Source of the DNA: a bacterium
GTDB taxonomy: Bacteria > Vulcanimicrobiota > JAZDOK01
Direction of reading: 5' to 3'
Length of the DNA: 64,000 bases
Assembly: GCA_043798715.1 (NCBI GenBank)
Contig: JAZDOK010000100.1
Span: 197,645 to 261,644 of the forward strand
Shown here one piece after another: positions 39,516 to 58,498 of the stretch (its first letter is position 1; the number at the start of each line of letters is the position of its first letter). The notes beneath the pieces are model-generated. The model was given only the letters and a program-made list of their open reading frames with translations. It was not told the DNA's origin and searched no databases. The translations under genes and the position numbers were made by a program.

Positions 39516-40127
39516 TTACTTCCTGGCCAGAATTTTTTTCGCCATGGACTCCGACAGGTCCGGGTCATAGCTCGTAATGAAAAAGATGCAGTTGTCTATG
39601 CAAAATACCAGAGAATAACCGCCGTATCTGCCTGAGATGCTGAAGCCCAGATCTCCAAAGGGAACTTTGCGGCACAGGAAATAGTCCTGGTAGACGTAAG
39701 GCTGTGTGGAATTCCAGTCAGGCCGGCTCAGGCTCTTAGTGTAGGTGATGTACAGAACGCCGTTTTCAGCTTGTTCCGGCTTGTCGTAGCAGCCGTATTC
39801 AACAGTGGCCCGGAAGTTGAGATTGGCGTCGGTCCAGGTCTGGCGGATGCCATCAACCGTGGAAGAGATCGAAGGCTCTCCCAGCAGGGTCGAATCAAAA
39901 GTTCCGGCGGAGTATCCGGTCTCCGGGTGAGAAAAGCGCTCCGGGAGGGAATCGAAGACAGGCCATAGATGATCAATTCGCTCTTCGTTGTTCAGGGAGA
40001 GGGTCGGCACATCGGCTGCTCGAAGCTGGTATTTCTGGCTCTCAAAAAAGGCCCAGCCGGCCCGGAAAAGAGCCAGAACGAGCAGAGCCGGGATCAGGGT
40101 GATGGCCAGGAGGCGAATCTTGTTCAT
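39516..40127 (-). CDS. Hypothetical exported protein (203 aa)
   Basis: It has a signal-anchor. Its start overlaps the stop of the upstream Mo-enzyme gene in an ATGA arrangement. Confidence 0.45.
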   Translation of the reverse strand: MNKIRLLAITLIPALLVLALFRAGWAFFESQKYQLRAADVPTLSLNNEERIDHLWPVFDSLPERFSHPETGYSAGTFDSTLLGEPSISSTVDGIRQTWTDANLNFRATVEYGCYDKPEQAENGVLYITYTKSLSRPDWNSTQPYVYQDYFLCRKVPFGDLGFSISGRYGGYSLVFCIDNCIFFITSYDPDLSESMAKKILARK

Positions 40128-42411
40128 CGGGCATCAACCTCCGCGATGTCCTCAGGCAGGATGGGCAGGCGCCTGGCCCGGTAACCCACCGCGTTGAAAA
40201 TGGCGTTGGCCACGGCCGGAGCACTCGGGATGAGGGGAGTCTCGGCGAATCCCTTGGCTCCGAAGGGACCTCCGGAGTATGGTTTTTCAATCAGGATGAC
40301 CTTGAATTCCGGGGCATCAAGGACGGTAGGGATGGTGTAAGTGGCCAGAGAGGAACTCAGGAGCCGCCCTTCCTTCATGACCATGTTTTCGTAGAGGGCG
40401 TAGCCTATTCCCTGGAGGGCGCCGCCTTCGATCTGGCCTTCGAGAGACTGCGGGTTTATCGCCCGTCCCACGTCATGGGCCGCCGTAAGCTTAAGAACCT
40501 GCACCGCTCCGCTCAGAAGATCCACTTCGACTTCGGCTATGTGAGTGGCGTAGGAGTAAATAAAATAGGCCTCGCCCTGGGACACTTCCTCATCCCAGGC
40601 GAGGGGCGGAGCGGTAAAATATCCCATGGTGGACAGGCAGACGTTTCTCAGGTAGCACTCCCTGGTCACCTTTTCAAAAGAGATCTCCCGGCCGCGGGCG
40701 GAATATCCATTCGGAAAGCCGTTCACCTCTTCCGGGGAGGCGCCCAGAAGGGAGGCGGCCACGGCGACAAGTTTTTCCCTGATCTCGCGGGCGGCGGCGA
40801 TGACGGCATTGCCGGCCAAAAGCGTCGTCCTGGAGGCGACCGAGGGACCGCTGTCCGGAACAAATCCGGTGCTGGTCTCCAGCATCCGCACCCGGTCAGT
40901 CGTTACGCCGAGCGCCTCGGCGGCGATCTGGGTGAGGACGGTCAAGGCCCCCTGGCCCATGTCCACGTTGCCCACGGCCACATTGATGGTGCCGTCCTGC
41001 CAGACTTGCAGGTGCGCCCCGGCCTTGTCCAGAGCCCATCCTTTGGATCCCAGGCTGACCCCGTAGAAACTGGTGGCCACGCCTATTCCCCGCCGGACTC
41101 CTCCGGACTGCCGCGAAAACTCCTCCCGCTTTTTATCCCATCCGGAGGCCTCGCGGGCCTCCTCCAGGGTTTCCACCAGTCCCACGCTCTCGGTGAGCTT
41201 ATGGCTGGTGGCGGTGAGGGAGCCCTCCCGAAGAGCGTTCTTGAGGCGCAATTCCATGGGATCCATCGAAAGCTCCGAGGCCAGCTCATCCATTAAGGAC
41301 TCGGAGGCGAAGGCGACCTGGGGCTGGCCGAATCCCCGCATGGCGCCGGTTGGAAACTGGTTGGTATAGACGCCGATGGTATCAACACGGACGTGGGGAA
41401 CGACGTAGGGGCCGGCCGCATGGACGTTCGTGCGGAACAGGACGACGGGGGACAGTGAGTCATAGGCCCCGCAGTCGGCGTATATCGTGACCTCGATGGC
41501 GGTCAGGCGGCCGTCTTTTTTGGCTCCGATTTTATAGTCCATGATCATGGGGTGCCGCTTGCTGGTGGTGACGAGGTCCTCTTCCCTTGTCAGGACCATC
41601 TTTACCGGCCTGCCGGAGGCCACGGCGAGAAGGGCCGCCCTGGCGCAGACTTCCGAGGGAACGTCCTCCTTCCCTCCGAAGCCGCCCCCCATCACAACCT
41701 GAATGACCCGCACCTTGTTGTAGCCGATTCCAAGGCAGCGGGCCACGGCTTTCTGGACATAGAAGGGGCACTGTATGGAGCCATAGAGAGTCACCTCTCC
41801 ATCGGGGCCGGGAACGGCGACAGCCCCCTGGGTCTCCAGGTAGACGTGTTCCTGGTGCTTCACCTCATAGCGCCGTTTAAGAACGACGTCGGCCTCGCGG
41901 AATCCCTCCTCCGTGTTGCCCTTGCGGAGCTTGAGGTGAAGGGCCTTGTTGCCTCCGGGGTGAATGGCCGGAACCCCTGCCTTTAAAGCGTCTTCCGGGT
42001 GGAAGACGCCGGGGAGAGCCTCATAATCAACTTTGATAAGCCTGGACGCCTTCTCGGCGGCCTCTCTGGACTCAGCCGCCACGAGGGCGATGCAGTCTCC
42101 GGCGTAACGCACTTTCTCATAAGCCAGAAGCGGCTGGCCTTCCTTTACGACTCCGATTTCATTTTTGCCGGGGATATCCCCGGCGGTGAGCACGCTGATG
42201 ACGCCCGGCTGCCTCTGGGCCTCGCGCACGTCAACCGAGCGGATGAGGCCGTGGGGAGAGGAGCTGTAAAAGCCCTTGCCATAGAGCATTCCCGGGAAGA
42301 CGAGATCGTCCGTATAGGCCGCTTTGCCCTCGGCCTTCAGGAGCCCGTCAACGCGCTCCAAGGGCTTTCCGATGCAGCTTTCCACGGACGGAGAGATGAG
42401 TATCGTCATAA
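40124..42411 (-). CDS. Xanthine dehydrogenase / aldehyde oxidoreductase family molybdopterin-binding subunit
   Basis: A ~760-aa MoCo-binding large subunit. The likely start is MTILIS at 42411, preceded by a GGAGGA RBS. The track ORF starts at 42556. Confidence 0.8.
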
Positions 42412-42549
42412 GAAATCCTCCTGTTCTTTCCCCTTTTCGTTCGAGATTCGGAGCGTCTCTTCCTCCAGCATATTCTGTCTTGAATAACACCTCGAAAAAG
42501 ACTGAGGTATGTGACGTCAGGCGATCATGCGATGGGCGTTCACCTCGCC

Positions 42550-42577
42550 TTGACATCTCAAAGTGATATGCTATAAT
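42550..42577 (+). promoter_or_regulatory. Sigma70 promoter with extended -10 (TTGACA-16-TGcTATAAT)
   Basis: TTGACA at 42550-55 and TGCTATAAT at 42569-77. The tRNA 5' end lies 11 nt downstream. Confidence 0.6.
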
Positions 42578-42763: not shown

Positions 42764-43543
42764 TCAGGCCTCGGTGTCCCTGGGGACGACCTCCATCGAG
42801 GAGATGGTGAGGCAGGAGAGGAGCAGGAAGATGGCTCCGTAGCCAAGGAGGAAGGCGAAGGCCGCCCACTGGTACTCCGCCTGATAGAAAAGATCCTGAG
42901 GCCCGCCCCTCATAGGCGGATAGGGCAGGAGCTCGTGCAGGTGATAGAGTATTGTCAGGCGTTTGAAAAAGCCGGGGAGCCACCCGGCCATGTTCTCCCA
43001 CCCGAAACCTATTAAAAATCCGGCCAGGTAAGGATTTTTTAAAGCCAGCCCGAGGAGGGAGAAGAGAGCCCCATACACCAGGATTCCCAGAACCGAGACC
43101 CCGGCGGCCGCCAGGAAATCCAGGATGCTTTGGCCTGAAAAATATGTCATGCGCAGACTCAAAGCATAGGTTCCGGCCTGTGAAAGGATAACCAGAACCG
43201 ACAGAGCCGAAAAAGCGCCGGCGAACTTGGCCAGGAAGAGAAGCGACCGGGGCACGGGACGCGTGAAGAGGTAGGGCAGCGTGCCGGAGTCCATCTCCGA
43301 AGAAATCAGGCTCACCCCCAGGTAGAGAGAGCTGAGAGGAATGAAAAATCCCAGGTAGTATCCCATCAGCACAAATTGATAGGGGTTGTAGGCGGCAAAT
43401 CCGGTAACTCTGCCTTTTACAAATAAGGAGTAAAAAATCAGCATCGCCAGCCAGGGGAAGACGGCCAGGAAGATCAGGCCGCTTCGTGACGCGGCGTGGC
43501 GGGCCGTCCGCATGAAGATGGATCTCAGAGCCTCCTGATTCAC
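42764..43543 (-). CDS. ABC-2 type transporter permease
   Basis: 259 aa, 6 TM. Confidence 0.7.
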   Translation of the reverse strand: MNQEALRSIFMRTARHAASRSGLIFLAVFPWLAMLIFYSLFVKGRVTGFAAYNPYQFVLMGYYLGFFIPLSSLYLGVSLISSEMDSGTLPYLFTRPVPRSLLFLAKFAGAFSALSVLVILSQAGTYALSLRMTYFSGQSILDFLAAAGVSVLGILVYGALFSLLGLALKNPYLAGFLIGFGWENMAGWLPGFFKRLTILYHLHELLPYPPMRGGPQDLFYQAEYQWAAFAFLLGYGAIFLLLSCLTISSMEVVPRDTEA

Positions 43544-43559
43544 TTTCCCCTCCTCCGCC

Positions 43560-44474
43560 TCATTTTACCAGGTACTCAAAGACGGCCGCAAGATTGTCGT
43601 CAAGCGGATTTATGATTTCAATTCCCAGGTTCCGCTTCGAGAGAAGGGCCGTCAGGTCACGGTAGAAGCGCCCGGCCTCGCTGACCTCCAGGGTGAGACC
43701 CCGCCCGTCCGGGCTGAAAGAGACGGAAAAGACGCAGGGCCAGGCGCTCAACTCCGCGCCCATGAGACGCGCATCGGCGCAGCGGAGAAAAATGCGCAGG
43801 GGGCGGCTGTGGATGGCCTCGCGTACTTCGAGAACTTCACCGGAGGCCAGGATACGCCCCTTGTCCAGGAGCAGAATCCGGGAGGTCATGGCCTCCACCT
43901 CGTGCAGGACGTGGGAGGAGACCAGGATATACTTCCCCGCTTCCCCCAGTTTCCTGATCAATTCAATCGTCTGGACCCGGCTCTTGGGATCCATCCCGTT
44001 CAAGGGCTCATCGAGCAGAATGACATCCGGATCATGCACCAGGGCCTGAGCGATCTTGACCTTCTGGCGCATCCCCTTGCTCATGCGGCAAATCCTGTAA
44101 TTAGCTTCCTCCAGCAGGGCGACTTCACGGCAGGTTTTCACGGCCCGCTCCATGGCCTCAGCCGGGGAATAGCCCGAGAGCCGGGCCAGGTAGGCGACAA
44201 AGTCAAGGCCGGTCATCTCCTCGTAGAAATGATCGACGGAGGGGCAGTAGCCCAGAAGCCTTAACGCTTCCGGATTGGCAAATATAGATTTCCCTCCCAG
44301 AGTGATCGAGCCGGTGGAGGGGAGGAGCAGACCCGCGCAGATATTTAGGAGGGTGCTCTTCCCGGCTCCGTTCACCCCCAGAAGGCCGGTGACGCCGCTC
44401 TCAAGGTCGAGACTGACCCTGTTTAAACCCAGAACCAGGCCATACCAGCGCGAAACTTCCATGAGACTGATCAT
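43560..44474 (-). CDS. ABC transporter ATP-binding protein
   Basis: Walker A GVNGAGKST, signature region and Walker B ILLDEP. I place the start at MISLMEV, which gives an ATGA overlap with the upstream permease. Confidence 0.8.
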   Translation of the reverse strand: MISLMEVSRWYGLVLGLNRVSLDLESGVTGLLGVNGAGKSTLLNICAGLLLPSTGSITLGGKSIFANPEALRLLGYCPSVDHFYEEMTGLDFVAYLARLSGYSPAEAMERAVKTCREVALLEEANYRICRMSKGMRQKVKIAQALVHDPDVILLDEPLNGMDPKSRVQTIELIRKLGEAGKYILVSSHVLHEVEAMTSRILLLDKGRILASGEVLEVREAIHSRPLRIFLRCADARLMGAELSAWPCVFSVSFSPDGRGLTLEVSEAGRFYRDLTALLSKRNLGIEIINPLDDNLAAVFEYLVK

Positions 44475-45316
44475 CGAAGCAGCCTCTTCCGCGAAAAATT
44501 CCACCAGAGAAGGCCCAGACTCGCTGCCGTTAAAACGGCGAAATAAATCATGCTGTGACTGAAAGAGACCTTTAACATCTCATCCGCTCCCAGGCAATGT
44601 GAGGCCAGAGCGGACATCTCCAGAAGAATGCCGAAAATGGATACCCAGGGATTATTCCCCAACGCCCCGAGAAGCGCCCCGGCAGTCGTCCCGAAAAATA
44701 GAATTCCGATGAGGAGAAGCCCGGTGAGCCTGGGAGAAGAACTGAGCGATGAGAGGGCCAGAACAAAGAGGACCAGGCTTCCGACGCCGACGACGGTGTA
44801 GAGAAGCGAGCCCCAAAGGACGCGAAAATGCTGGATGAAAAAGGAAAAATCTCCCGTGATTCCCACGTGAAGGAGCACCATGAGCCAGACCGGAAGAAGA
44901 GTGAAAAGAAGAAAAAATCCCGCCAGCGAGAAACCCTTGGCCCAGAGATACTGGACGGGGCTGAGCGCCCGCCCCAGAAAAACCTCGATGGTCCTGTCCC
45001 TCCGATCCCGCGCCACCAGGCCGGAGCCGACCCAGATTGAAAGAAAGGCCATCATGAAGTCCTGCCACGGATTGGCCAGGAGAAAGGCGGCCACTTTCTC
45101 ATCAAATACGGGCACATTGCCCATGACCTTGAAATGAAGCAGCACCTGCGAAATTGCGGCCAGAGCCCAGGGAAGGATTGCCAGTGCCATGAAGAAGAAA
45201 AAAAGCCGACTGTTCAGGAAGGGTGCGATCTCCTCCCGCCAGAGCGGCACCCAGCGCCACCAGAGCGGGAGGCGCTCCCCCTGGTAGGTCTCATATCCCT
45301 GATGGTAAACAGGCAT
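44471..45316 (-). CDS. ABC-2 type transporter permease
   Basis: 281 aa polytopic. Confidence 0.7.
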   Translation of the reverse strand: MPVYHQGYETYQGERLPLWWRWVPLWREEIAPFLNSRLFFFFMALAILPWALAAISQVLLHFKVMGNVPVFDEKVAAFLLANPWQDFMMAFLSIWVGSGLVARDRRDRTIEVFLGRALSPVQYLWAKGFSLAGFFLLFTLLPVWLMVLLHVGITGDFSFFIQHFRVLWGSLLYTVVGVGSLVLFVLALSSLSSSPRLTGLLLIGILFFGTTAGALLGALGNNPWVSIFGILLEMSALASHCLGADEMLKVSFSHSMIYFAVLTAASLGLLWWNFSRKRLLR

Positions 45317-45321
45317 TTTCC

Positions 45322-46247
45322 CTAGTTCCCCCTGGCGATCATACCGAGATAGGCATCTTCGAGAGAGGATTCCTCACGGACCAGCCGGTGAATGGAGCCA
45401 TCCAGTGCTGCGGCCAGGCTGAAGAGTTCCCGGGCTCCCGCGTCCGGCGGAAGTACGAGGTGCACCAGGCTCTCATGTCCCGGTTTGGCCTCCCACCCGG
45501 CTCCGGCGCAGGCGGCCAGAAAATTTTCCCGCTCACCCTGCCACTGGACGATGAAGTGGCGCTCTTCCGCCACCTTCAGATTTTCGATGGGTTCGGACGC
45601 AAGCACCTGCCCCCGGTTCAGGATAACGACCGTGGAACAGATCGCTTCGACATCTTTGAGAATGTGAGTCGAAAAGAGGATGGTTTTACCTGCTCTAACC
45701 AGGTCCCGGCAAAGCTCCAGGACCTCCTCGCGTCCCGCCGGATCCATCCCGGCCGTGGGTTCGTCCAGAAAGACGATGGCCGGATCATGAACCAGCGCGA
45801 CTGCGAATTTGAGCCGCTGCTGCATACCGGTGGAATAGGTCTGGGCATCCCGGTAGCGACTCTCCCCGAGCCCCACATAATTGAGCATTTCGTGAGCCCG
45901 TTCGATGGCGCGCCTTCGGGGAAGTCCCGACATCTCCCCCAGGAAGGAGACCCAGCCGATGCCGGAGATGCCGGCCCTGAGCCCCTCCCGCTCGGGGACG
46001 TAGCCGATCCGATCCCGTATACCCTCCCCCAGAAGGCGGGAATCCTCTCCCATGAAGCGGAAACTCCCGGAGGAAGGGGGCATCAGGTTAAGGAGTACCT
46101 TTATCAGTGTGGATTTACCCGCTCCGTTGGGCCCCAGAAGCCCCACCGCCCCACCCATGACTTCAAAGGTGACGCCCCTGAGCGCCTGCAACTTCCCGTA
46201 GTCGGCGCACAAATCCTTAACCGAGAGAACGGCCTGTTTATCCATTG
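45322..46247 (-). CDS. ABC transporter ATP-binding protein
   Basis: GPNGAGKST Walker A. The likely start is MDKQAVLSVKDL at 46247; the track ORF has a 99-codon upstream extension that is probably untranslated. Confidence 0.8.
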
Positions 46248-46336: not shown

Positions 46337-47464
46337 ATGCAGAGTAATATTCTTGCGAGCCTCAGGGGGCTCTTTTTCCCGGTGGTCTTTCTGCTCCTTA
46401 CCTCTTCTTTATGCTCCGCCAGGGATGAGGCGCTCCCCCTCCACCCGGCCCGCTTCTTTAAAAGCATTCCCGGGGGACGCGTACAATGCCGGCTCTGCCC
46501 CCGCCGGTGCCTTCTGGAGGAAGGACAGCGGGGCGCCTGCACCGTGCGAAAAAACGTCGGGGGGAGCCTCTACTCGCTGGTCTGGGGCCTGCCCTGCGCC
46601 GTCAACGTGGACCCGATAGAAAAAAAGCCCTTCTTTCACTTCCTTCCGGGCACACTGACCTTCTCCATCTCCACCGCCGGCTGCAATATGCGCTGTATCT
46701 TCTGCCAGAACTGGCAGATCTCCCAGAAGAGCCCGGAGGAGACTAAGAACTGCTCCTTGCCCCCGGTCGAGGTCGTGAAAGCCGCAAAAAAATCAGGCTG
46801 CCGATCCATCGCCTACACTTACACCGAGCCCGCAGTCTATTACGAGTACATGCTGGATACCGCCCGCGAAGCCAGGAAAGCCGGAATCTTAAACGTGATG
46901 CACTCCTGCGGCTACATCAACCCGGAGCCGCTCAGGGAATTGTGCCGCTACCTCGACGCCGCCGATATCGATCTTAAGTCCATAGATCAGCAATTCTACT
47001 CCACCCTCACCATGGGAGACGTGGCCCCGGTTCTTGAGTGCCTGAAAATCCTCAAAAAGGAAGGCGTCTGGACCGAGATCACCAACCTCGTTATTCCGGG
47101 TCAGAACGACGACCCCGTCACGATAAAAAAAATGTGCCGCTGGATCCGGGAGAACCTGGGCCCGGACGTGCCGCTCCATTTTTCCCGCTTCCACCCGATG
47201 TACCGGCTGAATAATCTGCCTCCGACCTCTTTCGATACGCTTGAATTGGCCCGCCGGATCGCCCTCCGGGAGGGACTTCACTTCGTCTACATCGGGAATG
47301 TGCCGGGCAATACCGCCGAAAATACCCTCTGCCCCGAATGCGGCAAACTACTCATAGAGCGGAAGGGCTTTGAGATCCTTAAGAATGAAATCTCCGGGGG
47401 AAAATGCAAATACTGCGGCCGGAAGATCCCCGGAATTTTTCGGGAGGAGGACTTGAGAAAATGA
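46337..47464 (+). CDS. AmmeMemoRadiSam-system radical SAM enzyme
   Basis: VQCRLCPRRC...GACTVRKN...DPIEKKP...CNMRCIFCQNW matches the family core. A ~35-aa hydrophobic N-terminal extension (LFFPVVFLLLTSSLCSA) precedes it. Confidence 0.8.
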   Translation: MQSNILASLRGLFFPVVFLLLTSSLCSARDEALPLHPARFFKSIPGGRVQCRLCPRRCLLEEGQRGACTVRKNVGGSLYSLVWGLPCAVNVDPIEKKPFFHFLPGTLTFSISTAGCNMRCIFCQNWQISQKSPEETKNCSLPPVEVVKAAKKSGCRSIAYTYTEPAVYYEYMLDTAREARKAGILNVMHSCGYINPEPLRELCRYLDAADIDLKSIDQQFYSTLTMGDVAPVLECLKILKKEGVWTEITNLVIPGQNDDPVTIKKMCRWIRENLGPDVPLHFSRFHPMYRLNNLPPTSFDTLELARRIALREGLHFVYIGNVPGNTAENTLCPECGKLLIERKGFEILKNEISGGKCKYCGRKIPGIFREEDLRK

Positions 47465-49020
47465 GACGCACCACATTTTGCACACTGGCGATCATCCTGA
47501 TCCTGCTTACCTGTTCCTGCTCAAGCCGGGCCGGGGACAGGAAGGCGAACGAGACAAAGGAGGCAAAAAAGATGAAGGCCGAAAATAAAGTTAGAAAACC
47601 GGCGGTCAACGGAATGTTCTACCCGGGAAGTCCCAAGGAGCTCTCCTCCCAGGTGGATAAGTACCTCAGGAACGCCGAGGGGGAGAAAAGATCGGAGGTG
47701 CCACGGATCCTCATCGTTCCCCATGCGGGATACCCCTACTCGGCCCAGGTGGCCGCCTACAGCTTCATCCAACTGAAGGGAAGTGCGATCAGTACAGTCT
47801 TTCTGCTCGGCCCCTCGCACCGCGCCTATTTTTCGGGCGTGGCCGCGGACGACTCCGACGCCTGGGAGACCCCTCTGGGAAATGTCTCTCTCGACCGTGA
47901 AAAACTCGCGCTCCTGATGAAAAAAGATCCTGATATCGCCATCATTCCCGAAGCCCATGCGGCCGAACATTCGCTGGAGGTGCAGGTGCCTTTCCTTCAG
48001 AAAGTCCTCCCGGGCGCTTCCATAATCCCCCTGGAAATGCTGGATCCGGATCCCAAAACCTGCGGCAATCTGGCCTCCGCCATCGCCCCGATATTGAAAG
48101 AAAATCCCCGCGCGGTTCTTATCGCCAGCTCGGATCTCTCCCACTACTACCCCTACGATCAGGCCGTAAGGAAGGACAATCTGTTCCTTTCGGCAGTCGA
48201 AAAAATGGCGGTAAAAGACTTCCCTGGAAAAATCCAGAATAAGGAGTTCGAGGCCTGCGGCTCGGCCCCCGTCTTAACCGCGCTTATGACGGCCGAAAAG
48301 CTGGGAGCGAATGAGGTGAGGGTCCTCAAATACGCCAATTCCGGTGATGTCACCGGCGACAAGTCCCGGGTGGTCGGATACGCCGCTGTCGCCTTCTATG
48401 GCCGCGAAGAGGCCAAAGTTCCCGGGGCTGAAAAAGAAGAAGCTTCGCCGGCCCACCACGTGGTTCCCGAGGGGGTGGAACTTCTCTCGAAGGAGGAGCA
48501 GGCCTTCCTGCTCAAGGTAGCCCGGGAGACCCTGGAGGCGCACGTTCGGGGGAACAAAATTCCCGCCTTTTCCCCTCAGACTCCCAGGCTCTCTAAAAAA
48601 ATGGGGGTCTTCGTGACCCTCACCAAAAATGGCGACCTGCGCGGCTGCATCGGCTACATCCAGGGCATAGCGCCCCTCTTCGAGGCCGTCTCCCAGATGG
48701 CCGTCCAGGCTGCCAGCCACGATCCCCGCTTCAGTCCGGTGCGGCCGGAGGAACTGAAAGACATCCACATAGAGATCTCCGCCCTCTCGGAGCTCAAGGA
48801 GATCAAGGACGTCAACCTGATCAAGGTCGGCACCCATGGCATCATCATCAAGAGAGGTTTTTCACAGGGTCTGCTTCTTCCTCAAGTAGCGACGGAATAC
48901 GGATGGGGCCGGGATGAGTTTCTTAAGCACACCTGCCTGAAGGCGGGCCTCCCGCCTGAGACCTGGAAGGAGCCCGGGACCCAGATCGTCATCTTCTCGG
49001 CGCTGGTCTTCGGAGAATAG
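47461..49020 (+). CDS. Fused Memo-like (AmmeMemoRadiSam protein B) + AMMECR1 (protein A) protein with N-terminal lipoprotein-like leader
   Basis: Memo region ILIVPHAGYPYS...; AMMECR1 region with LRGCIGY...; N-terminus MRRTTFCTLAIILILLTCSCSS. Its ATG overlaps the radical SAM stop in an ATGA arrangement and is preceded by a GGAGGAGGA RBS. Confidence 0.75.
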   Translation: MRRTTFCTLAIILILLTCSCSSRAGDRKANETKEAKKMKAENKVRKPAVNGMFYPGSPKELSSQVDKYLRNAEGEKRSEVPRILIVPHAGYPYSAQVAAYSFIQLKGSAISTVFLLGPSHRAYFSGVAADDSDAWETPLGNVSLDREKLALLMKKDPDIAIIPEAHAAEHSLEVQVPFLQKVLPGASIIPLEMLDPDPKTCGNLASAIAPILKENPRAVLIASSDLSHYYPYDQAVRKDNLFLSAVEKMAVKDFPGKIQNKEFEACGSAPVLTALMTAEKLGANEVRVLKYANSGDVTGDKSRVVGYAAVAFYGREEAKVPGAEKEEASPAHHVVPEGVELLSKEEQAFLLKVARETLEAHVRGNKIPAFSPQTPRLSKKMGVFVTLTKNGDLRGCIGYIQGIAPLFEAVSQMAVQAASHDPRFSPVRPEELKDIHIEISALSELKEIKDVNLIKVGTHGIIIKRGFSQGLLLPQVATEYGWGRDEFLKHTCLKAGLPPETWKEPGTQIVIFSALVFGE

Positions 49021-51217
49021 CCCACGGCAGGGCCACCGCCAGGAGCAGCGACCCTACCAGCCCAACGCCGGCCGGGAGGCCCCAGAGGGGGATCATAATC
49101 GTGGAGACGAAAAAGGCCCCAAAACTGCTCCCGAAGAGGTCCCACCCGTAAACCCTGCCCAGATGAGCTTCCTCATCCGCTCTCTTCTCCAGCGACAGGC
49201 AATTGGCCGCCGGAAAGAAGAGCCCGATGCAAAGGCCGTCGAGGAACATGGCCAGAGCGAATAGAATCTGGATGGCCGCCTCCGGGATATTAAGGCCGGT
49301 AAACAAGGCATTTGAAGCCGGGAAGATAACCAGAGCCAGGGAAGCCATCCCCAACACGCTTAAAAAGGCCGTCCTCTGAGCGTTGCGAACTGAGGAGACC
49401 GCTCGCGCAGATCCCAGGGCTGAGCCGATCATGAACATGGCGCTCAGGATGCCGGCCTGAAGGTAGATGTATCCATAGGCCGCCTGAAAAGCGGTGAAGA
49501 TGAAAATTTCAAGGGCCATGGCGGAAAAACCCATAATCCAGGTCGTCATGAGAACGACCGGGGAGCGTTTTCTGAAAATCCCCAGGGCCGCCAACAGGAC
49601 CACGAAGCAGTAAAGCGGAATCAATCCAATCCTCTCCTGTCCGAACTTAAGGACCCACTCAAGGCGGATCCCCTGCCGCGAAAGCCAGAAAAGGAGCTCG
49701 AAGAAAAAACAGAGGGGGCGGGCGTCCGTGTTGACAGTTTTATTCTCTCTGCCGCGCAGGCTCCTGAAAAACGCTTCCTTCTGGAAGGGAGAGAGACGGT
49801 GGCGGATGAGGCCCGGGCTCAGAAAATGAAGGGCAATCTTTCTTTCCTCAGCCCTCCCGATGAGGGTTTCAGGGTTAAGCGGGAGGGAAGTCGGCGAGGC
49901 CAGGAGCAGGGCGCGCCACCCGGGAATCACCTGAATCGAGGAAAAAACGCCGGAGATCGTATCCAGGATACAGCCGTTTCTGGCCGCAAGTTCCGGGCTG
50001 ATGTAGCCCTCGGCCGACTCGACGGTGACCGCCAGAATCCCTCCGGGAGTCAGTCTTCCCCGAAGATCCCGATAGAACTCCTCCGTATAGAAGCGGTTGA
50101 GAAGAAGGTTGGAAGGAGGGGGCAGGGCGCAGAATATGAGGTCGAAAGCCTCCCGGCTCCGGCGGACAAAAAGTCTCGCATCCCCGGAAACCTGCCTTAT
50201 TCTGGATGAAGAAAAAGAATCTTTAAGCGGCTGGGGCAGAAATTTTTCCTCTGTCCTCAGCAGGAAGGGATCAGCTTCGAGATAGACCGCTTCTTCAACC
50301 GGGTGCTTCAGGACTTCGGCCAGAAGCCCGCCGCCGCCTCCCAGTACCAGCACTTTTTCGGGAGCCGGGTGAGCCAGAAGAGCTAGATGAGCCGTCTCTT
50401 CGTTTGAAGGGGCCTCTCCGCTTCCGGAAAGGTAAATGCCATTCTGAAAAAAATTGACTTCTCCCTTGTTTCTGGTAACCGCGATTCTTCCGTAGGGAGA
50501 CTCCAATGTGGATACAAGATTAAAACCCCTCCATTGGAGGCGATCGGCCTTTCCCTGAAGGGTCTGTGTCACTCCGCCTCCCGCCACGGTCAGAATAACG
50601 AGTGCCGCCGAAATGAAGAACCGGAGGCGTCCTTCACGGATTTTAAGAGCGACGAAAAGTGCGTTAAAGCCCGTCCAATAAAAGAGAATAGGAATGGGTT
50701 GCACGCACCGCAGGCCTAGAAAAGTGAACAAAAAACCCCCCAGGGCAAATCCCAGGGACTCCCAGAGATAGATGCGGCGCACGGCCTCCGGGGAAGAGAG
50801 GGCCGCTTCATCCTCACGGGCCGCCCGCCCCAGAAAAGCAAACTGGAGCCCCAGAAGGAAACAGGGAAAAAACAGGATGAGGAGCGCCGGGAGGAAGAGC
50901 AAGAGGCCTGGGTTCTCCCCTGGAATTCTCCCCAGAATCCCGACCCAGCGGAGAAGGAAGAGGGCGGGGAGAGGCGACAGGATCAGGAAGATCCAGGTGC
51001 CCAGGGAGGACGCCCTGGAGGAAATTTTCTGAAACGGCGGGAAGGAAGAGCAGAGGCTTCCAAGGCCGGTAAAGAGCATCCAAGCCCCCAGGTAGATCCC
51101 GAGAACCAGCTCGTTTCCCATGAACAGGCAGAGCCACTCCCGAAGGAAAACCAGCTGCAGGAAGACGGCGTTGAATCCCAGGACAAAAGCAGGTCCGTTT
51201 TTCTTCATCGCATCCAT
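48989..51217 (-). CDS. Membrane-fused spermidine-synthase-like (polyamine aminopropyltransferase fold) protein
   Basis: 742 aa with an N-terminal polytopic domain, a central SAM-MTase/spermidine-synthase-like domain (VLVLGGGGGLLAEV...LEADP) and C-terminal TM helices. Confidence 0.65.
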   Translation of the reverse strand: MDAMKKNGPAFVLGFNAVFLQLVFLREWLCLFMGNELVLGIYLGAWMLFTGLGSLCSSFPPFQKISSRASSLGTWIFLILSPLPALFLLRWVGILGRIPGENPGLLLFLPALLILFFPCFLLGLQFAFLGRAAREDEAALSSPEAVRRIYLWESLGFALGGFLFTFLGLRCVQPIPILFYWTGFNALFVALKIREGRLRFFISAALVILTVAGGGVTQTLQGKADRLQWRGFNLVSTLESPYGRIAVTRNKGEVNFFQNGIYLSGSGEAPSNEETAHLALLAHPAPEKVLVLGGGGGLLAEVLKHPVEEAVYLEADPFLLRTEEKFLPQPLKDSFSSSRIRQVSGDARLFVRRSREAFDLIFCALPPPSNLLLNRFYTEEFYRDLRGRLTPGGILAVTVESAEGYISPELAARNGCILDTISGVFSSIQVIPGWRALLLASPTSLPLNPETLIGRAEERKIALHFLSPGLIRHRLSPFQKEAFFRSLRGRENKTVNTDARPLCFFFELLFWLSRQGIRLEWVLKFGQERIGLIPLYCFVVLLAALGIFRKRSPVVLMTTWIMGFSAMALEIFIFTAFQAAYGYIYLQAGILSAMFMIGSALGSARAVSSVRNAQRTAFLSVLGMASLALVIFPASNALFTGLNIPEAAIQILFALAMFLDGLCIGLFFPAANCLSLEKRADEEAHLGRVYGWDLFGSSFGAFFVSTIMIPLWGLPAGVGLVGSLLLAVALPWAILRRPAPRR

Positions 51218-51473: not shown

Positions 51474-51560
51474 ATGTTGGACATGGTGCTGGGGGGCGCG
51501 GCGGCTCTCTTCCTCCTCATATATCTTGGGTATGCTTTGATGAAAACGGAGAAATTCTGA
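51474..51560 (+). CDS. kdpF: K+-transporting ATPase subunit F
   Basis: A 28-aa hydrophobic peptide, MLDMVLGGAAALFLLIYLGYALMKTEKF, not in the ORF track. It has an AAGGAGGAGG RBS, and its stop overlaps the kdpA ATG. Confidence 0.7.
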   Translation: MLDMVLGGAAALFLLIYLGYALMKTEKF

Positions 51561-53272
51561 TGTTTCAAGTGGAGAGGGATCTCTTTCAAATTATCCTCTA
51601 CCTGGCGGTCCTGATTCTTCTTGCAGTCCCACTAGGCCGTTACATGGCACGGGTTTTCAAGTTCGAAAAAACTTTTCTGGATCCCCTGGTGGAGCCTCTC
51701 GAACGCTTTATCTACCGCTTGGCTGGCGTGCACCGGGAGCGTGAGATGAACTGGAAGGAGTATGCCTTTTCCCTCCTTCTCTTTAATGGCCTCGGGATGG
51801 TACTTGTCTATCTCTTTCAGCGCTGCCAGGGCGCTCTTCCCTTTAATCCCCAACACTTCGGCCCGGTTCCTCACTTCCTCGCCTTAAGCACGGCGGTAAG
51901 CTTCATGACCAATACGAACTGGCAGGCCTATGCCGGTGAAACCACTATGAGCCACCTGACCCAGATGGCGGCCCTGGCGGTGCAGAATTTTCTCTCCGCA
52001 GCCACCGGCATCGCCGTCGCCGTAGCCATTACGCGGGGACTGGCCCGCCGCACGGCCCGGACCATCGGGAGCTTCTGGGTGGATCTGACGAGATCCGTTC
52101 TCTGGGTGCTTCTCCCAGGTTCCCTTCTTCTGGCGCTTCTTCTGGTTTCCCAGGGGGTGATCCAGAACCTCAGACCAGACCTTGTTCTTCAGACGCTCGA
52201 AGGAGGCCGACAAACTCTGGCGATGGGACCGGTGGCCTCCCAGGAGGCCATAAAGGAGCTCGGTACCAACGGGGGAGGTTTCTTTAACGTCAACTCCGCC
52301 CATCCCTTCGAAAACCCGACGCCCCTCGCCAACTTCCTGGAGATGCTGGCCATCTTCCTTATTCCATGCGCCCTCACCCTCACTTACGGAGAGATGGTCG
52401 GAGACCGCCGCCAGGGATGGATCATCCTTCTTTCCATGACGCTCCTCTTCCTTATCTTTCTGGGGACATGCTATGCGAGCGAACTCTACGGAAACCCCCT
52501 GATCCGCTCCCTGGGAGTCAGCGGACCGACGGCCATGGAAGGGAAAGAGGTGCGCTTCGGCATCGTGAATTCCTCCCTTTTTGCGACCATCACGACCGCG
52601 GCCTCCTGCGGAGCCGTGAATTCCATGCACGATAGTTTCACGCCCCTGGGAGGGCTGGTGCCCATGCTCCAGATCATGCTCGGGGAGGTCGTCTTCGGCG
52701 GGGTCGGCGCCGGGCTATACGGGATGCTGGTCTTTGTAATTCTCACGGTCTTCATCGCCGGGCTCATGGTGGGCAGGACCCCCGAATACCTGGGGAAGAA
52801 GATTGAAAGCGCCGAGATCCGGATGGCGGCCATCGCCGTCCTAATCCAGGCGGCGGCCATTCTTCTGGGGAGCGCCCTGGCCGTCTCGACGAAGGCCGGC
52901 ACTTCCTCTATTTTAAATGGAGGCCCCCATGGACTGAGCGAGGTTCTCTATGCCTTCACCTCCTGCGTCGGAAACAATGGAAGCGCCTTCGCCGGCCTCA
53001 ATGCGAACACTGTTTTTTATAATATTCTGCTCGCCCTGGCCATGCTGATCGGGCGCTTCGGCGTCATAATTCCGGTACTCTCCATCGCCGGCAGCATGGT
53101 GGCCAAAAAATCCGTGACGCCCGGCCCCGGAACCTTCAAAACGGACAGCCTGCTTTTCGCCGTCCTCCTGGCGGGGGTCGTCATCATCGTGGGCGCCCTC
53201 ACCTTCTTCCCGGCCCTGGCCCTGGGCCCCCTGGCGGAACAACTCCTCATGGTCTCGGGAAAAACTTTTTAA
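51560..53272 (+). CDS. kdpA: K+-transporting ATPase subunit A
   Basis: 570 aa KdpA. Confidence 0.9.
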   Translation: MFQVERDLFQIILYLAVLILLAVPLGRYMARVFKFEKTFLDPLVEPLERFIYRLAGVHREREMNWKEYAFSLLLFNGLGMVLVYLFQRCQGALPFNPQHFGPVPHFLALSTAVSFMTNTNWQAYAGETTMSHLTQMAALAVQNFLSAATGIAVAVAITRGLARRTARTIGSFWVDLTRSVLWVLLPGSLLLALLLVSQGVIQNLRPDLVLQTLEGGRQTLAMGPVASQEAIKELGTNGGGFFNVNSAHPFENPTPLANFLEMLAIFLIPCALTLTYGEMVGDRRQGWIILLSMTLLFLIFLGTCYASELYGNPLIRSLGVSGPTAMEGKEVRFGIVNSSLFATITTAASCGAVNSMHDSFTPLGGLVPMLQIMLGEVVFGGVGAGLYGMLVFVILTVFIAGLMVGRTPEYLGKKIESAEIRMAAIAVLIQAAAILLGSALAVSTKAGTSSILNGGPHGLSEVLYAFTSCVGNNGSAFAGLNANTVFYNILLALAMLIGRFGVIIPVLSIAGSMVAKKSVTPGPGTFKTDSLLFAVLLAGVVIIVGALTFFPALALGPLAEQLLMVSGKTF

Positions 53273-53284
53273 CCGGAGTCGAAG

Positions 53285-55369
53285 ATGTCTAAAAAATTAT
53301 CCGATTCAGCAAAAGGAACGGCCCGTTTCAAGGTCCATTTCGACTCCCGGCTTATGCTTCGAGCGATCCGGGATGCCTTCCTTAAGCTGGATCCCAGGGT
53401 CCAGTACCGGAACCCGGTGATGTTCGTCGTAGAAATAGGTGCCGGTCTCATAACTTTCTTCATTGCACGCGATCTCATTATTGGAGAACGTTCCGCGCTC
53501 TCGCTGAACACCCAGCTTGCTGTGTGGCTCTGGGCGACCGTTCTCTTCGCCAATTTCGCGGAGGCCCTGGCCGAAGGCCGGGGGAAAGCCCAGGCGGAAG
53601 GCTTAAGACGCACGCGCTACGAAACCCAGGCCAAAAAAATCATCAACGGATCGGGAAAAATCGAGATCATCCCCGCATCCTGCCTCAAAAAGAACGACAT
53701 CGTCCTGGTGGAGACGGGCGATGTCATCCCCGGGGACGGCGAAATCATCGAGGGGATCGCCTCGGTGGACGAGAGCGTGGTCACCGGGGAGTCCGCCCCC
53801 GTCATCAGGGAGTCCGGAGGAGACCGAAGCGCCGTGACCGGCGGGACCCGTGTCCTCTCGGACTTCCTCAAGGTCCGCATCACGGCCGACCCCGGCGAGA
53901 CTTTTTTAGATCGCATGATCCGCCTGGTTGAAGGCGCCCAACGGCAGAAGACCCCGAACGAGATCGCTCTTAACATCCTGCTGGTCGGCCTGACATTAAT
54001 TTTTCTCCTGGCTGTCGCCACCCTGGAGAATTTTGCGCTCTACTCGGGGACCAGCGTTTCCATACCCATCCTCATCGCCCTCCTGGTCTGCCTGATACCG
54101 ACAACCATCGGGGGACTGCTGAGCGCCATCGGGATCGCCGGAATGGACCGTGTCTTCAAGCGAAACATCCTGGCCATGTCCGGGCGGGCGGTGGAGGCGG
54201 CCGGGGACGTAGACGTCCTTCTTCTCGACAAGACCGGGACCATCACCTTGGGCAACCGCATGGCCACCCGTTTTATCCCGGCTCCCGGCGTACCCGAGGC
54301 CAAGTTGGCCGAAAATGCCCAACTGGCTTCTTTTGCCGATGAGACCCCGGAGGGGCGGAGCATCGTCATCCTGGCCAAGGAGCGATTCAACCTGCGGGAG
54401 CAGGAATTAAAATCTCTTGGAGCCGTCTTCGTTCCTTTCAGCGCCTATACCCGGATGAGCGGGGTGAATCTCAGAGATCGCGAAATAAGGAAGGGCTCCG
54501 CCGACGCCGTCGAAGCCTTTGTCGGGGAAAGGGGCGGCTATGTTCCCCCGGAGGTCAAAGCCGCGGTCGAAGAAGTCGCGAAGAAGGGCAGTACTCCCCT
54601 GGTGGTGGTCATGGTGGTCCCCGAAGGGGTCAAGGTGCTGGGGGTCATCGAGCTCAAGGACATCGTCAAGGGCGGCATCCGCCAACGCTTTGCCGAGCTG
54701 AGCCGCATGGGCATCCGGACGGTCATGATCACGGGAGACAACCCGCTCACGGCGGCGGCTATCGCGGCCGAGGCGGGGGTTGATGATTTCCTGGCGGAGG
54801 CCACGCCGGAGGTCAAACTGCAATTCATTCGGGATGAGCAGGCCAAAGGCCACCTGGTGGCCATGACCGGGGACGGGACCAACGACGCCCCGGCGCTGGC
54901 ACAGGCGGACGTCGGGGTGGCCATGCACAGCGGAACCCAGGCGGCCAAGGAGGCCGGCAACATGGTGGATCTCGACAGCAACCCCACCAAGCTCCTGGAG
55001 GTGGTGGAAATAGGAAAGCAGCTCCTCATGACCCGGGGGGCTCTCACCACTTTCAGCATCGCAAACGACGTGGCCAAGTATTTCGCCATCATTCCCGCCC
55101 TCTTTTCCGCCACCTACGCGCCGCTCGCTCTCCTCAACATCATGCACCTGGCCTCTCCCCAAAGCGCCATCCTCTCGGCCATCATCTTCAACGCTCTCAT
55201 CATCATCGCCCTCGTGCCCCTGGCTCTCAAGGGGGTGGCCTACCGCCCGCTCGGGGCCGCCGTCATCCTGCGCCGCAACCTTCTCATCTACGGAGTGGGC
55301 GGCGTGATCGCACCCTTCATCGGTATTAAACTCATCGATCTTCTCCTGGTTGCTCTGGGACTGAGCTGA
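53285..55369 (+). CDS. kdpB: K+-transporting ATPase subunit B (P-type ATPase)
   Basis: DKTGT phosphorylation motif, TGDGTNDAP. Confidence 0.9.
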
Positions 55370-55386
55370 AAGGAAACCGCCAAGCC

Positions 55387-55998
55387 ATGAAAAAAAATAT
55401 TTTAACAGCAGGATCCCTGCTACTCTTGATGACTCTCCTGACGGGCCTCCTTTATCCCCTGGCTGTTACGGGTCTGGCCGCGCTCCTTTTTCCCCGGCAG
55501 GCCGCGGGGTGCCTGCTCTCCTTCAAGGGACAGCCGGTCGGCTCCGCCCTCATCGGCCAGAACTTTAAAAATCCCGCCTTCTTCCACGGCCGCCCCTCGG
55601 CGGCCGGAAGAGAGGGCTATGACGGCACTTCCTCCTCCGGCTCCAACCTCGGCCCGACAAATCGGAATTTGATCGATACTATCCGGAAGGCGGCGGAGGC
55701 GCTGCGGGTGGAGAACGCCCTTTCCGCAGATGCTCCGGTCCCGTCCGATCTCGTGACGGCATCCGGAAGCGGCCTCGACCCGGACATCACCCCCGAGAGC
55801 GCTTTCCTTCAGGTCAGCCGCGTGGCCCGTAGCCGGCAGCTTCCGGAGGAGCAGGTAAGGGAGTTCGTTCTGAAGGCCATTCGAAGGCCTCAACTTGGTA
55901 TCCTGGGAGAGAGGCGGGTGAACGTCCTTGAGCTGAACCTGGAATTGGAAAAATATTCCATAATCCATATAAGGGGGACTTTGAATGAATCTCAATAA
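55387..55998 (+). CDS. kdpC: K+-transporting ATPase subunit C
   Basis: 203 aa KdpC with an N-terminal TM. Confidence 0.85.
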   Translation: MKKNILTAGSLLLLMTLLTGLLYPLAVTGLAALLFPRQAAGCLLSFKGQPVGSALIGQNFKNPAFFHGRPSAAGREGYDGTSSSGSNLGPTNRNLIDTIRKAAEALRVENALSADAPVPSDLVTASGSGLDPDITPESAFLQVSRVARSRQLPEEQVREFVLKAIRRPQLGILGERRVNVLELNLELEKYSIIHIRGTLNESQ

Positions 55999-56099
55999 AT
56001 TTTTTCTTAGCTTTGAAGGGAAAAACCCTCATGCGGCAAAGTAAGTGCGAAGAGAAATAGCCAATCGGCCTGACAGACGGCAATAAAGGAGGAACTCAC

Positions 56100-57308: not shown

Positions 57309-57400
57309 GATTAATTTTTGTATTACGGGTAAGCCGGATGGTTTGATTGGCTGTTTGCTGAAAATCACCGGGCTTATCCCCATTTAATGGAGGGGACTCG

Positions 57401-58492: not shown

Positions 58493-58498
58493 GGCGAT

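Follow-up and report, generated by a model that had tools for sequence, protein, structure and literature searches.

A candidate extracytoplasmic AmmeMemoRadiSam system: a radical SAM enzyme and a Memo-AMMECR1 fusion with signal-like leaders next to a SpeE-like membrane protein

Gene pair and family relationships

In the window, i.e., the whole 64-kb stretch of DNA that was analyzed, the gene encoding an AmmeMemoRadiSam radical SAM enzyme (RS) is followed by a gene encoding a Memo-AMMECR1 fusion protein, and the pair is flanked by a divergent ABC-2 exporter cluster on one side and by a convergent gene for a SpeE-like membrane protein on the other. The genes, domains and motifs are the following:

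42764-46245, minus strand: cluster of two (ATPase + ABC-2 permease) units, divergent from the RS gene, with 91 nt between start codons
46324..46329, plus strand: Shine-Dalgarno (SD) sequence GAGGAG of the RS gene, 7 nt 5' of its start codon (anti-SD duplex -9.1 kcal/mol)
46337..47464, plus strand: AmmeMemoRadiSam RS gene, 375 aa (TIGR04337 396.3 bits, cutoff 220)
46682..46714, plus strand: CNMRCIFCQNW, the CxxxCxxC radical SAM cluster motif, RS residues 116-126 (C116/C120/C123)
47461..49020, plus strand: gene for the Memo-AMMECR1 fusion, 519 aa; NCBI protein P0121 has the identical sequence and is called from the same start
47593..48396, plus strand: Memo (AmmeMemoRadiSam protein B) domain, residues 45-312 (TIGR04336 290.7 bits, cutoff 26; PF01875 226 bits)
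47722-47742, plus strand: HAGYPYS motif, within the Memo domain
48505..49011, plus strand: AMMECR1 (AmmeMemoRadiSam protein A) domain, residues 349-517 (TIGR04335 187.5 bits, cutoff 99; PF01871 193 bits)
48637-48657, plus strand: LRGCIGY motif, within the AMMECR1 domain
48989..51217, minus strand: SpeE-like partner gene, 742 aa, with 7 TM helices, a spermidine-synthase-fold domain and 7 further TM helices; it converges on the fusion gene with a 32-nt overlap

The two genes form a genuine AmmeMemoRadiSam pair. RS also matches PF04055 (77.5 bits for a cutoff of 29.5), a homologue 95% identical to it (P0001) was found, and the three cysteines of the CxxxCxxC motif do not vary in alignments A1 and A2, across leader-bearing and leaderless classes. 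All three components of the system (TIGR04335, TIGR04336 and TIGR04337) score far above the cutoffs and are encoded together: the RS stop codon (TGA, 47462-47464) overlaps the fusion start codon (ATG 47461) as ATGA, and proteins A and B form a single polypeptide. The fusion start is served by a strong SD (duplex -12.1), and the related loci L001 (91% identity), L084 (87%) and L082 (74%) retain this SD as well as the ATGA overlap. The nearest solved structures were the MEMO1 entries 3bcz and 7kq8 for the Memo domain, and PH0010 (entry 1vaj) for the AMMECR1 domain. The original prediction had assigned RS to this family from its CNMRCIFCQNW signature, which is borne out by a TIGR04337 score of 396 bits for a cutoff of 220, and the ATGA-coupled fusion with its HAGYPYS and LRGCIGY motifs was found as it had been described. 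It had also called the function of the system unknown, in line with the literature searched, which uses the system name only in passing. Searches for this name and for AMMECR1 together with radical SAM returned passing mentions only or nothing relevant, Burroughs et al. (2019; cited in PMC7159879), who discussed Memo-AMMECR1-radical SAM systems, lying outside their reach.

Memo-AMMECR1 fusions are common in the AmmeMemoRadiSam family, and are listed by JGI as ‘protein B/protein A’. In the distant family members sampled, proteobacterial and archaeal ones included, RS is leaderless, and Memo and AMMECR1, where they occur in the locus, are separate and leaderless, whereas the window and a large clade have predicted export signals on both proteins, and A and B fused. 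This clade also differs from the distant members in that polytopic SpeE-like and electron-conduit genes travel along with the system. The nearest characterized relatives of RS are the glycyl-radical-enzyme activases (PflA, NrdG; PDB 3c8f/3cb8), with which it has the CxxxCxxC core in common. However, the window RS falls far below the cutoffs of these families (59 vs 232 bits) and carries extra N- and C-terminal cysteine clusters in addition to its predicted export leader. No glycyl-radical partner for the window RS is present.

N-terminal leaders and the internal start of the fusion

Both proteins begin with a hydrophobic segment, LFFPVVFLLLTSSLCSA at residues 12-28 of RS and LAIILILLTCSCSS at residues 9-22 of the fusion, and a putative second start lies just before the Memo domain. 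The corresponding features are:

46337..46420, plus strand: N-terminal leader of RS, MQSNILASLRGLFFPVVFLLLTSSLCSA, of hydrophobic, Sec/SRP-like character; it lacks both a twin-arginine motif and a lipobox
47461..47520, plus strand: signal peptide of the fusion, MRRTTFCTLAIILILLTCSC, with a lipobox-type ending; lipidation is predicted at Cys20 (47518-47520)
47557..47574, plus strand: internal AAGGAGG-N8-ATG of the fusion (SD 47557-47563; ATG 47572, Met38; duplex -11.6 kcal/mol)

Signal type and orientation were called with our own simple hydropathy and charge rules, together with a reading of the upstream frames. Position 1 of the TIGR04337 model aligns only from RS residue 38. An N-terminal hydrophobic leader was found in 115 of the 120 closest RS homologues, a full leader in 88 of the 120 closest fusion homologues, and a leader in all 21 fusions of the sampled loci whose N-terminus is present. 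Because the leaders of RS and of the fusion recur in most of the closest homologues, although the leader sequences themselves are not conserved, they are beyond chance. Hence, the hydrophobic leaders that the original prediction had singled out as unexpected are real, and the comparison of N-termini found them to be common among homologues and not absent from close orthologues. Besides, the RS leader is not removable by re-annotation, because the sole other in-frame start before residue 50, the GTG at codon 16, lies within the hydrophobic core and is not usable. The fusion differs in this respect. Only 6.7% of 75 internal in-frame ATGs reached a duplex energy of -9 or lower, and the internal SD with ATG 47572 is conserved in L001, L084 and L082. 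This ATG could act as a second start yielding a leaderless, cytoplasmic isoform of the fusion, while the conservation of the leader argues against its being the sole start. Thus, a downstream start with its own ribosome-binding site, which the original prediction had named as a sign against the leaders, was found for the fusion only, RS having none.

The leader of the window RS, which reads ASLRGLFF, has no twin-arginine motif and matches neither TIGR01409 nor the PROSITE PS51257-type lipobox rule, and L001 is without the Arg at this place. By contrast, sister RS share canonical Tat signals with periplasmic Fe-S enzymes: TIGR01409 (cutoff 16.7) was matched by P0065 (26.0 bits), P0098 (24.7 bits) and the L008 enzyme (16.8 bits), in a run on bare N-termini where short queries were filtered and only some of the obvious Tat cases matched. 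These Tat-bearing sister enzymes are true TIGR04337 members (362-395 bits). RRxFL-type or KR-variant motifs occur in the RS of 25 of the 80 species-level loci; the leaders of L003, L020 and L028 are of a KR-containing Sec type, not Tat. A truly leaderless RS was found beside a leader-bearing fusion in five loci (L010, L029, L038, L041 and L042). The RS of L032 and L033 were rejected as leaderless, the apparent absence resulting from frameshifts. Across homologues, the net charge is +3.2 in the N-flank of the RS leader and +0.24 in its C-flank, for a median hydrophobic run of 18 aa, and the N-flank is the more positive one in 109 of the 115 leader-bearing RS homologues, which favours an N-in/C-out orientation. 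The flanks of the window RS leader are nearly balanced, with one Arg before it and a net charge of zero after it. Kept as a feature across phyla while varying in type (Tat, SPI, SPII or anchor), the leaders display a pattern typical of exported proteins.

For the fusion, the lipobox rule applied (PROSITE PS51257-type) calls for a Cys at positions 15-35 and for K or R among the first 7 residues. Like bacterial lipoproteins, the window fusion fits this rule, with AIILILLTCSC as the predicted match at Cys20 and R2/R3 within the first 7 residues. Its signal codons are open and free of indels, and show only synonymous changes relative to L001 and L084 (87-91% identical). In the fusion of L082 (74%), Cys20 and hydrophobicity are kept, but Asn stands at position -3. 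Many fusion homologues end their leader in an AXA-type site or in a classic LAC lipobox.

Neighboring genes and electron-transfer modules

According to the original prediction, the 2x(ATPase+permease) ABC-2 cluster divergent from the locus could handle the product of the system. The cluster is indeed present (42764-46245, minus strand), and its arrangement is conserved in L001. However, both permeases recur only in this 91%-identical locus among 81 related loci and in none of the 80 species-level loci, so that neighborhood conservation is absent beyond L001, and the ABC ATPase matches at other loci are generic. In spite of the divergent position, with 91 nt between the starts, it is thus highly improbable that this exporter belongs functionally to the system as the carrier of its product. 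This comparison shows that the neighbor worth pursuing is not the ABC-2 exporter but the convergent polytopic SpeE-like protein (48989-51217), a conserved partner that the original prediction had missed.

The partner matches PF01564 at 67.9 bits and stays below all SpeE equivalog cutoffs (NF002956, 130 vs 472; NF002010, 90 vs 260; TIGR00417, 75 vs 249.55). The model for fused MFS/spermidine synthase (NF037959) reached 36.2 bits for a cutoff of 40, over residues 592-735 only, and homologues of the partner at 30-34% identity are named ‘fused MFS/spermidine synthase’ by NCBI. With an AlphaFold2 model of pLDDT 90.5, Foldseek retrieved SpeE structures at a TM-score of about 0.75 (1uir, E = 2.7e-13); the matches were confined to the SpeE domain, with none for the two 7-TM bundles. 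The soluble domain has the full SpeE fold (PDB 1uir, 1inl, 2o06), but differs from SpeE in being inserted between the two 7-TM bundles and in its predicted outward-facing position. This orientation is suggested by the K+R counts of the loops (230 vs 60 in the N-terminal bundle, 26 vs 185 in the C-terminal one), the bias of both bundles placing the soluble domain outside. The GGGxGG AdoMet motif is kept, as is the acidic residue that follows strand 2. The motif of the catalytic Asp, which we take to be the D-x-x-D-P region of SpeE, is not: it reads ALPPP in the window and varies among homologues (PDP, GDP, PMP, PAP).

The partner adjoins 26 of the 48 leader-bearing (exported-class) systems vs none of the 34 leaderless ones (Fisher 2e-8, phylogeny ignored), the count of 26 being that of direct matches spanning the SpeE domain. 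Where it is present in exported-class loci, it is always immediately adjacent. The convergent arrangement was also found in the cultured Occallatibacter riparius. As a side observation, Pirellulales proteins fuse SpeE-like and NosR-like parts, which inflated a cluster-based partner count to 30.

Relatives of the window RS are also associated with electron-transfer modules. Among representatives, RS domains are fused to FMN_bind (5 cases), Fer4_5/NapH-like (3) and DsbD_2 (3) domains, and in each of the fusions examined the RS domain is directly preceded by a K/R-rich stretch together with a TM helix. Electron-transfer modules or Tat-DUF362 genes adjoin 20 of the 48 exported-class loci vs none of the 34 leaderless ones, phylogeny again being ignored. 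Meheust et al. (2021, PMC8238504) describe NapH-like and DsbD modules as conduits that pass electrons across the membrane to redox enzymes of the extracytosolic side; the main text of that study mentions neither radical SAM, Memo, AMMECR1 nor DUF362. As in such flavinylation-associated systems, FMN_bind with PF12801 NapH-like domains, or DsbD_2, are found in the neighborhood of the related RS or in fusion with them, whereas the window is without any of these modules: no FMN_bind, NapH-like (PF12801) or DsbD-type gene was found within its 64 kb.

Where the radical SAM chemistry may take place

To our knowledge, radical SAM chemistry is regarded as cytoplasmic because of its dependence on SAM, on a low-potential reductant and on oxygen-sensitive Fe-S clusters. 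No radical SAM enzyme is known to us to have been documented as exported, such enzymes being known to us only from the cytoplasm. A literature search for Tat-dependent or periplasmic radical SAM enzymes found none, the one mention in a Tat paper concerning an unrelated neighbor gene. The original prediction had suggested that both proteins are anchored to the membrane. This wording is too weak, because the Tat signals of sister RS, the Cys20 lipobox, the charge bias of 109/115 RS homologues and the FMN_bind, NapH-like and DsbD_2 fusions favour export or an outward location. On balance, we lean toward reading the locus as an AmmeMemoRadiSam variant that is extracytoplasmic and tethered to the membrane, with RS probably working outside the cytoplasm.

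From these comparisons, we infer export, lipidation, an electron path, a role for the SpeE-like protein and a type of substrate as follows. The fusion would be exported by Sec and probably lipid-anchored at Cys20, while RS would sit on the outer side of the cytoplasmic membrane, retained there by a signal or anchor of N-in/C-out orientation, and would be a Tat substrate in related organisms. The ATGA coupling could fix the proportion of RS to fusion. Both proteins would work with the 14-TM SpeE-like protein, the AdoMet-fold domain of which would also face outward. In relatives, a NapH/NosR-like polyferredoxin with an extracytosolic FMN domain, a DsbD_2/CcdA-like protein or a Tat-exported DUF362 protein could feed electrons to RS. 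The substrate would most likely be an envelope-located molecule, and the SpeE-like protein appears as the best candidate to supply or use an adenosyl-methionine-derived group, or to present the substrate. It is possible, although we propose it only tentatively, that this is the first known radical SAM system outside the cytoplasm, combining a Tat- or Sec-targeted RS, a secreted or lipidated Memo-AMMECR1, NapH/NosR-FMN or DsbD-type conduits carrying electrons across the membrane (with the covalently flavinylated FMN domain in the role of flavodoxin), a 14-TM AdoMet-fold partner supplying or using a SAM-derived group, and an envelope or extracellular substrate.

Several observations speak against an extracytoplasmic location. 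The window RS is non-Tat, and a Sec-type leader fits poorly with an Fe-S enzyme; besides, we know of no source of SAM outside the cytoplasm. The charges flanking the window RS leader are near-balanced, five loci have a leaderless RS, the electron-transfer module is absent from the 64-kb window, and the conserved internal SD and ATG could yield a cytoplasmic isoform of the fusion. SAM and the cytoplasmic assembly of Fe-S clusters, on which radical SAM enzymes depend, would both be at hand, together with reductant, if the N-terminal helices tethered the two proteins to the inner face of the membrane and all chemistry stayed cytoplasmic, a view close to that of the original prediction. The leaderless RS of the five loci, the near-balanced charges and the lack of both RR and a TIGR01409 match in the window RS would fit such an arrangement. 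It is nevertheless unlikely in view of the fusion lipobox at Cys20, the AXA-type or LAC lipobox endings of many fusion homologues, the canonical Tat signals of sister RS and the N-in/C-out bias in 109 of 115 RS homologues, as well as of the RS domains fused to extracytosolic FMN_bind modules and the predicted outside position of the partner soluble domain.

The loci in which a leaderless RS stands beside a leader-bearing fusion (L010, L029, L038, L041 and L042) would also be expected if Memo-AMMECR1 alone were exported, RS acting as some maturases do, on the substrate or its partner protein, from within the cytoplasm or at a step that precedes export. The SAM and Fe-S problems would then vanish, and the nearest characterized relatives of RS are protein-activating enzymes (PFL-AE, E = 7e-8). 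We regard this division between compartments as improbable, since most RS of the clade have their own Tat or Sec-type signals and electron conduits directed outward are fused to RS domains, with a TM helix in between, while two apparent leaderless cases (L032, L033) are frameshift artefacts. As for the leaders being untranslated and the pair being an ordinary cytoplasmic one, the strong internal AAGGAGG-N8-ATG (47557-47574) just before the Memo domain would point in this direction, as would the several database homologues that start at internal Met codons. Such an annotation artefact is very unlikely: RS has no usable downstream start before its conserved domain, the leader codons of relatives are open and indel-free with synonymous changes, leaders are shared by over 100 homologues of many phyla, and the fusion start is identical in the NCBI call.

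If the extracytoplasmic, membrane-tethered reading is true, a widespread clade with export signals, electron conduits and an outward AdoMet-fold partner challenges the cytoplasm-only view of radical SAM chemistry, and raises the question of the route by which SAM and Fe-S clusters get to the periplasm. Both families, Memo and AMMECR1, have human homologues, MEMO1 being reviewed in PMC7694686. New handles on the function of these families are provided by the predicted localization, by the partners, and by the cultured host Occallatibacter riparius, which has the same gene arrangement.

The radical SAM and Memo-AMMECR1 genes and their starts

The locus is made up of two coupled genes and a convergent partner, as follows.

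46337-47464, + strand, gene of the AmmeMemoRadiSam radical SAM enzyme (RS), 375 aa; TIGR04337 match of 396 bits (cutoff 220) and PF04055 match
RS residues 116-126, cluster motif CNMRCIFCQNW
47461-49020, + strand, Memo-AMMECR1 fusion gene, starting at ATG 47461, 519 aa; TIGR04336 at residues 45-312 and TIGR04335 at residues 349-517
48989-51217, - strand, gene of a SpeE-like membrane protein

The original prediction of a single polypeptide carrying Memo and AMMECR1 domains, coupled to RS through ATGA, was confirmed by the TIGR04336 and TIGR04335 matches and by the overlap of the RS stop codon (TGA, 47462-47464) with the fusion ATG at 47461. The fusion is identical to an NCBI protein (P0121), for which NCBI called the same start, and the protein encoded downstream of it is identical to “hypothetical protein V2A78_13050” (P0241) from the same NCBI contig. 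Both domains were present in all 120 fusion homologues listed, and such fusions are evidently common. The two domains of the fusion match PH0010-type AMMECR1 and MEMO1 structures; no solved structure was found for the RS family, the nearest being PFL activase (E = 7e-8). Besides, two extra four-cysteine groups flank the radical SAM core (RS residues 51-68 and 332-360; window 46487-46540 and 47330-47416). The N-terminal group reads CxxCxxxC...C and the C-terminal one CPxC...CxxC; both are invariant or nearly so in loci with and without leaders, and may be ligands of auxiliary clusters or zinc.

Because the TIGR04337 match starts at residue 38, GAGGAG lies 7 nt upstream of the ATG and no usable start follows before the conserved domain, the hydrophobic export-type leader of RS is confidently predicted to be translated. 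The fusion start at ATG 47461 is well supported: its Shine-Dalgarno pairing (-12.1 kcal/mol) and the ATGA overlap are both kept in the related loci L001, L084 and L082 (91, 87 and 74% identity). Compared with L001 and L084, the 22 signal codons differ by synonymous changes alone; compared with L082, they differ by five synonymous and ten conservative changes, with no indels and with Cys20 retained. In addition, AAGGAGG stands 8 nt before an in-frame ATG at 47572 (47557-47574; -11.6), which encodes Met38 directly before the Memo domain. This internal site equals the first in strength, is conserved in the same three loci, even where neighboring codons differ, and may give rise to a second, leaderless fusion isoform. 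The objection that a downstream start with a ribosome-binding site removes the leaders applies formally to the fusion (ATG 47572), where conservation of the leader speaks against this being the single start. It fails for RS, in which the one alternative in-frame start ahead of residue 50, a GTG, falls within the hydrophobic core.

Leaders in homologues and across species

The N-termini of homologues bear out the predicted leaders on both proteins. Among the 120 nearest RS homologues, which show 55-95% identity, 115 have an uncharged hydrophobic run (median 18 residues) upstream of the domain; a small number of the 120 bear a source name, and these are labelled Omnitrophota, WOR-3, Stahlbacteria, Margulisiibacteriota, Ratteibacteria, Chloroflexota or Deltaproteobacteria. 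The N-flank is more positive than the C-flank in 109 of these 115 leaders, which fits an N-in/C-out orientation. Among the 120 closest fusion homologues, 88 bear a full leader, 25 have their annotated start at a Met within or beyond the signal, and only 7 start at the Memo domain. The window fusion has a PROSITE-type lipobox match at Cys20; its homologues mostly show AXA-like ends, and some a classic LAC or GGC lipobox.

A scan covering a single genome for each species yielded 80 loci, which were then analysed with our own HMMs and by inspection of the upstream frames. The class taken to be exported holds about 48 loci, the window and L001 included. Tat-type motifs stand in 25 of its RS genes (e.g., LSRRDFLK, LTRREFLK and ISRREFLL; Bacteroidales show KR variants) and Sec-like leaders in about 17, the window RS among them; 5 RS genes are truly leaderless, each beside a leader-bearing fusion. 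Three of these RS enzymes, P0065, P0098 and that of L008, exceed the TIGR01409 cutoff, and scores of 362-395 bits confirm Tat-bearing and module-fused proteins as TIGR04337 members. Two metagenome bins have the RS leader in one frame and the catalytic domain in another (L032, about 5100-5430; L033, about 2100-2434); these breaks are probably assembly frameshifts, because of which both loci had seemed leaderless.

The leaderless class comprises 34 more distant loci, including Terriglobia, proteobacteria and archaea, whose RS lacks a leader and whose Memo and AMMECR1 proteins, where in the locus, are encoded by separate leaderless genes, except in L037 (OY763407.1, 7949-10400), a leaderless RS-Memo-AMMECR1 triple fusion. 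Leaderless triple fusions occur in several domain orders (L037 and representatives P0372, P0393, P0399 and P0411), and inteins with LAGLIDADG domains in five other RS-family representatives. A neighbor-joining tree groups 30 of the 34 leaderless loci on one side, opposite the exported class, and calls for at least six events of leader gain or loss. Within it, the window falls into a Sec-like subclade adjoining Tat-type groups.

The SpeE-like partner and electron-transfer modules

In the partner, a soluble domain stands between two bundles of seven TM helices each (AlphaFold2 model, pLDDT 90.5, pTM 0.91). Polyamine aminopropyltransferases were the Foldseek match for this soluble domain (1uir, E = 3e-13, TM-score 0.75); the protein falls below all SpeE equivalog cutoffs and narrowly below “fused MFS/spermidine synthase”. 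Its Gly-rich AdoMet motif is conserved together with the acidic residue after it, but its catalytic Asp region is not. Where the N-terminal bundle has seven helices, its loops hold 230 K+R residues on the N-terminal side and 60 on the side of the domain; for the C-terminal bundle, the counts were 26 facing the domain and 185 on the opposite side. Since this bias arises in both halves independently, the predicted topology places the SpeE-like domain outside. Polar residues in or near the TM bundles (protein residues 26-36, 150-153, 496-498, 578 and 690-693) are invariant (R26, E36, Y150, N496, D498, Q578, Y690) or nearly so (E27, N35, E153, D693), which suggests that the membrane region holds a site for catalysis or transport.

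The gene of this partner is the neighbor that is conserved. Of the 48 exported-class loci, 26 gave direct matches across the SpeE-like domain; of the 34 leaderless loci, none did (Fisher 2e-8, not corrected for phylogeny). Where found, the gene is always immediately adjacent, co-directional or convergent. In the window it is convergent with the fusion gene, with a tail-to-tail overlap of 32 nt (48989-49020). The 3' overlap also occurs in L001 (6393-6424) and in Occallatibacter riparius (L085, 10246-10340; 95 nt), and immediately adjacent convergent pairs in about a dozen distant loci. This cultured acidobacterium shares the convergent arrangement of the window. Its annotated RS start (CP093313.1; L085 12946-13090) omits an in-frame upstream Tat motif, SDRRTFLQ (SDRRTFLQCALWAGAA), and the gene is probably annotated too late in the public record. 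Its neighbors include two Tat-DUF362 proteins, a Tat aldo-keto-reductase/ferredoxin and a NapH-like polyferredoxin.

DsbD_2, NosR-like or Tat-DUF362 genes adjoin 20 of 48 exported-class loci and no leaderless locus. The 150 best representatives of RS clusters at 50% identity comprise 99 short proteins, with 27 Tat and 4 Sec-like leaders, and 51 long ones, including 20-22 RS-Memo-AMMECR1 triple fusions, 5 fusions to FMN_bind, 3 to NapH-like Fer4_5 and 3 to DsbD_2. In the NapH-like fusions (P0362, P0363 and P0367), the RS domain is directly preceded by a stretch rich in K/R and by a TM helix. In P0362 these come after a CX3CP motif that we take, from NapH topology, to be cytoplasmic, which would place the RS domain outside. 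Pirellulales have the SpeE-like protein and a NosR-like module in one polypeptide of about 1300 aa (L038, 7184-11125; L042, 10756-14634), in which 7TM-SpeE-like-7TM is joined to FMN_bind and NapH-like parts; the adjoining RS has no leader. NapH-like and DsbD modules have been described as conduits to extracytosolic redox enzymes, mostly of unknown function, in a study whose main text is silent on radical SAM, Memo and AMMECR1 (Meheust et al., 2021; PMC8238504).

The extracytoplasmic reading and the gene neighborhood

Four independent lines, i.e., the RS and fusion signal types, the leader charge bias, the partner topology and the electron-module fusions, converge on an outward-facing system, and the window locus is read as a member of an extracytoplasmic AmmeMemoRadiSam variant. 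Its conserved core would be RS, the Memo-AMMECR1 fusion and the SpeE-like membrane protein, and a substrate located in the envelope would be the most economical guess. AmmeMemoRadiSam is already known as a bioinformatic entity; the exported variant with its partners was not found in the reachable literature, one key paper lying outside that scope.

Some observations sit less easily with this reading. The leader of the window RS is of non-Tat type, an awkward feature in an Fe-S enzyme; we know of no extracytoplasmic SAM source, and no electron-transfer module lies within the window. Anchoring of the proteins at the inner face of the membrane is less well supported than the outward-facing system, given the convergence of signal types, charge bias and partner topology. 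The five loci pairing a leaderless RS with an exported fusion do not fit the extracytoplasmic reading; a system split between compartments is likewise the weaker explanation, as most RS enzymes of this clade bear Tat or Sec-type signals of their own and RS domains are fused, behind a TM helix, to electron modules. An annotation artefact, with leaders arising from wrongly called starts, is also less well supported: the internal fusion start at ATG 47572 could be set on its side, and the conserved fusion start and signal codons and the translated RS leader on the other.

The ABC-2 exporter suggested to handle the product is not conserved beside the system, as both permeases recur only in L001. 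Other window genes (1476-6448, 7268-9298, 16043-18412, 34649-36265, 38079-39458 and 40124-42556) include at least one complex I / Mrp-type antiporter-like subunit (within 1476-6448; scanned ORF 4475-6448 of three), a ferredoxin-linked pyridine-nucleotide oxidoreductase, HypF, glycogen synthase, a MATE transporter and a xanthine-dehydrogenase-family molybdoenzyme; none of these recurred beside the system in other loci. After the SpeE-like gene come kdpABC, an ammonium transporter and kdpD/kdpE (51560-61929). In L001, a clostripain-like peptidase gene directly follows the SpeE-like gene and a similar gene lies at window 62076-63449; hence the kdp/amt block looks inserted between the two genes in the window.
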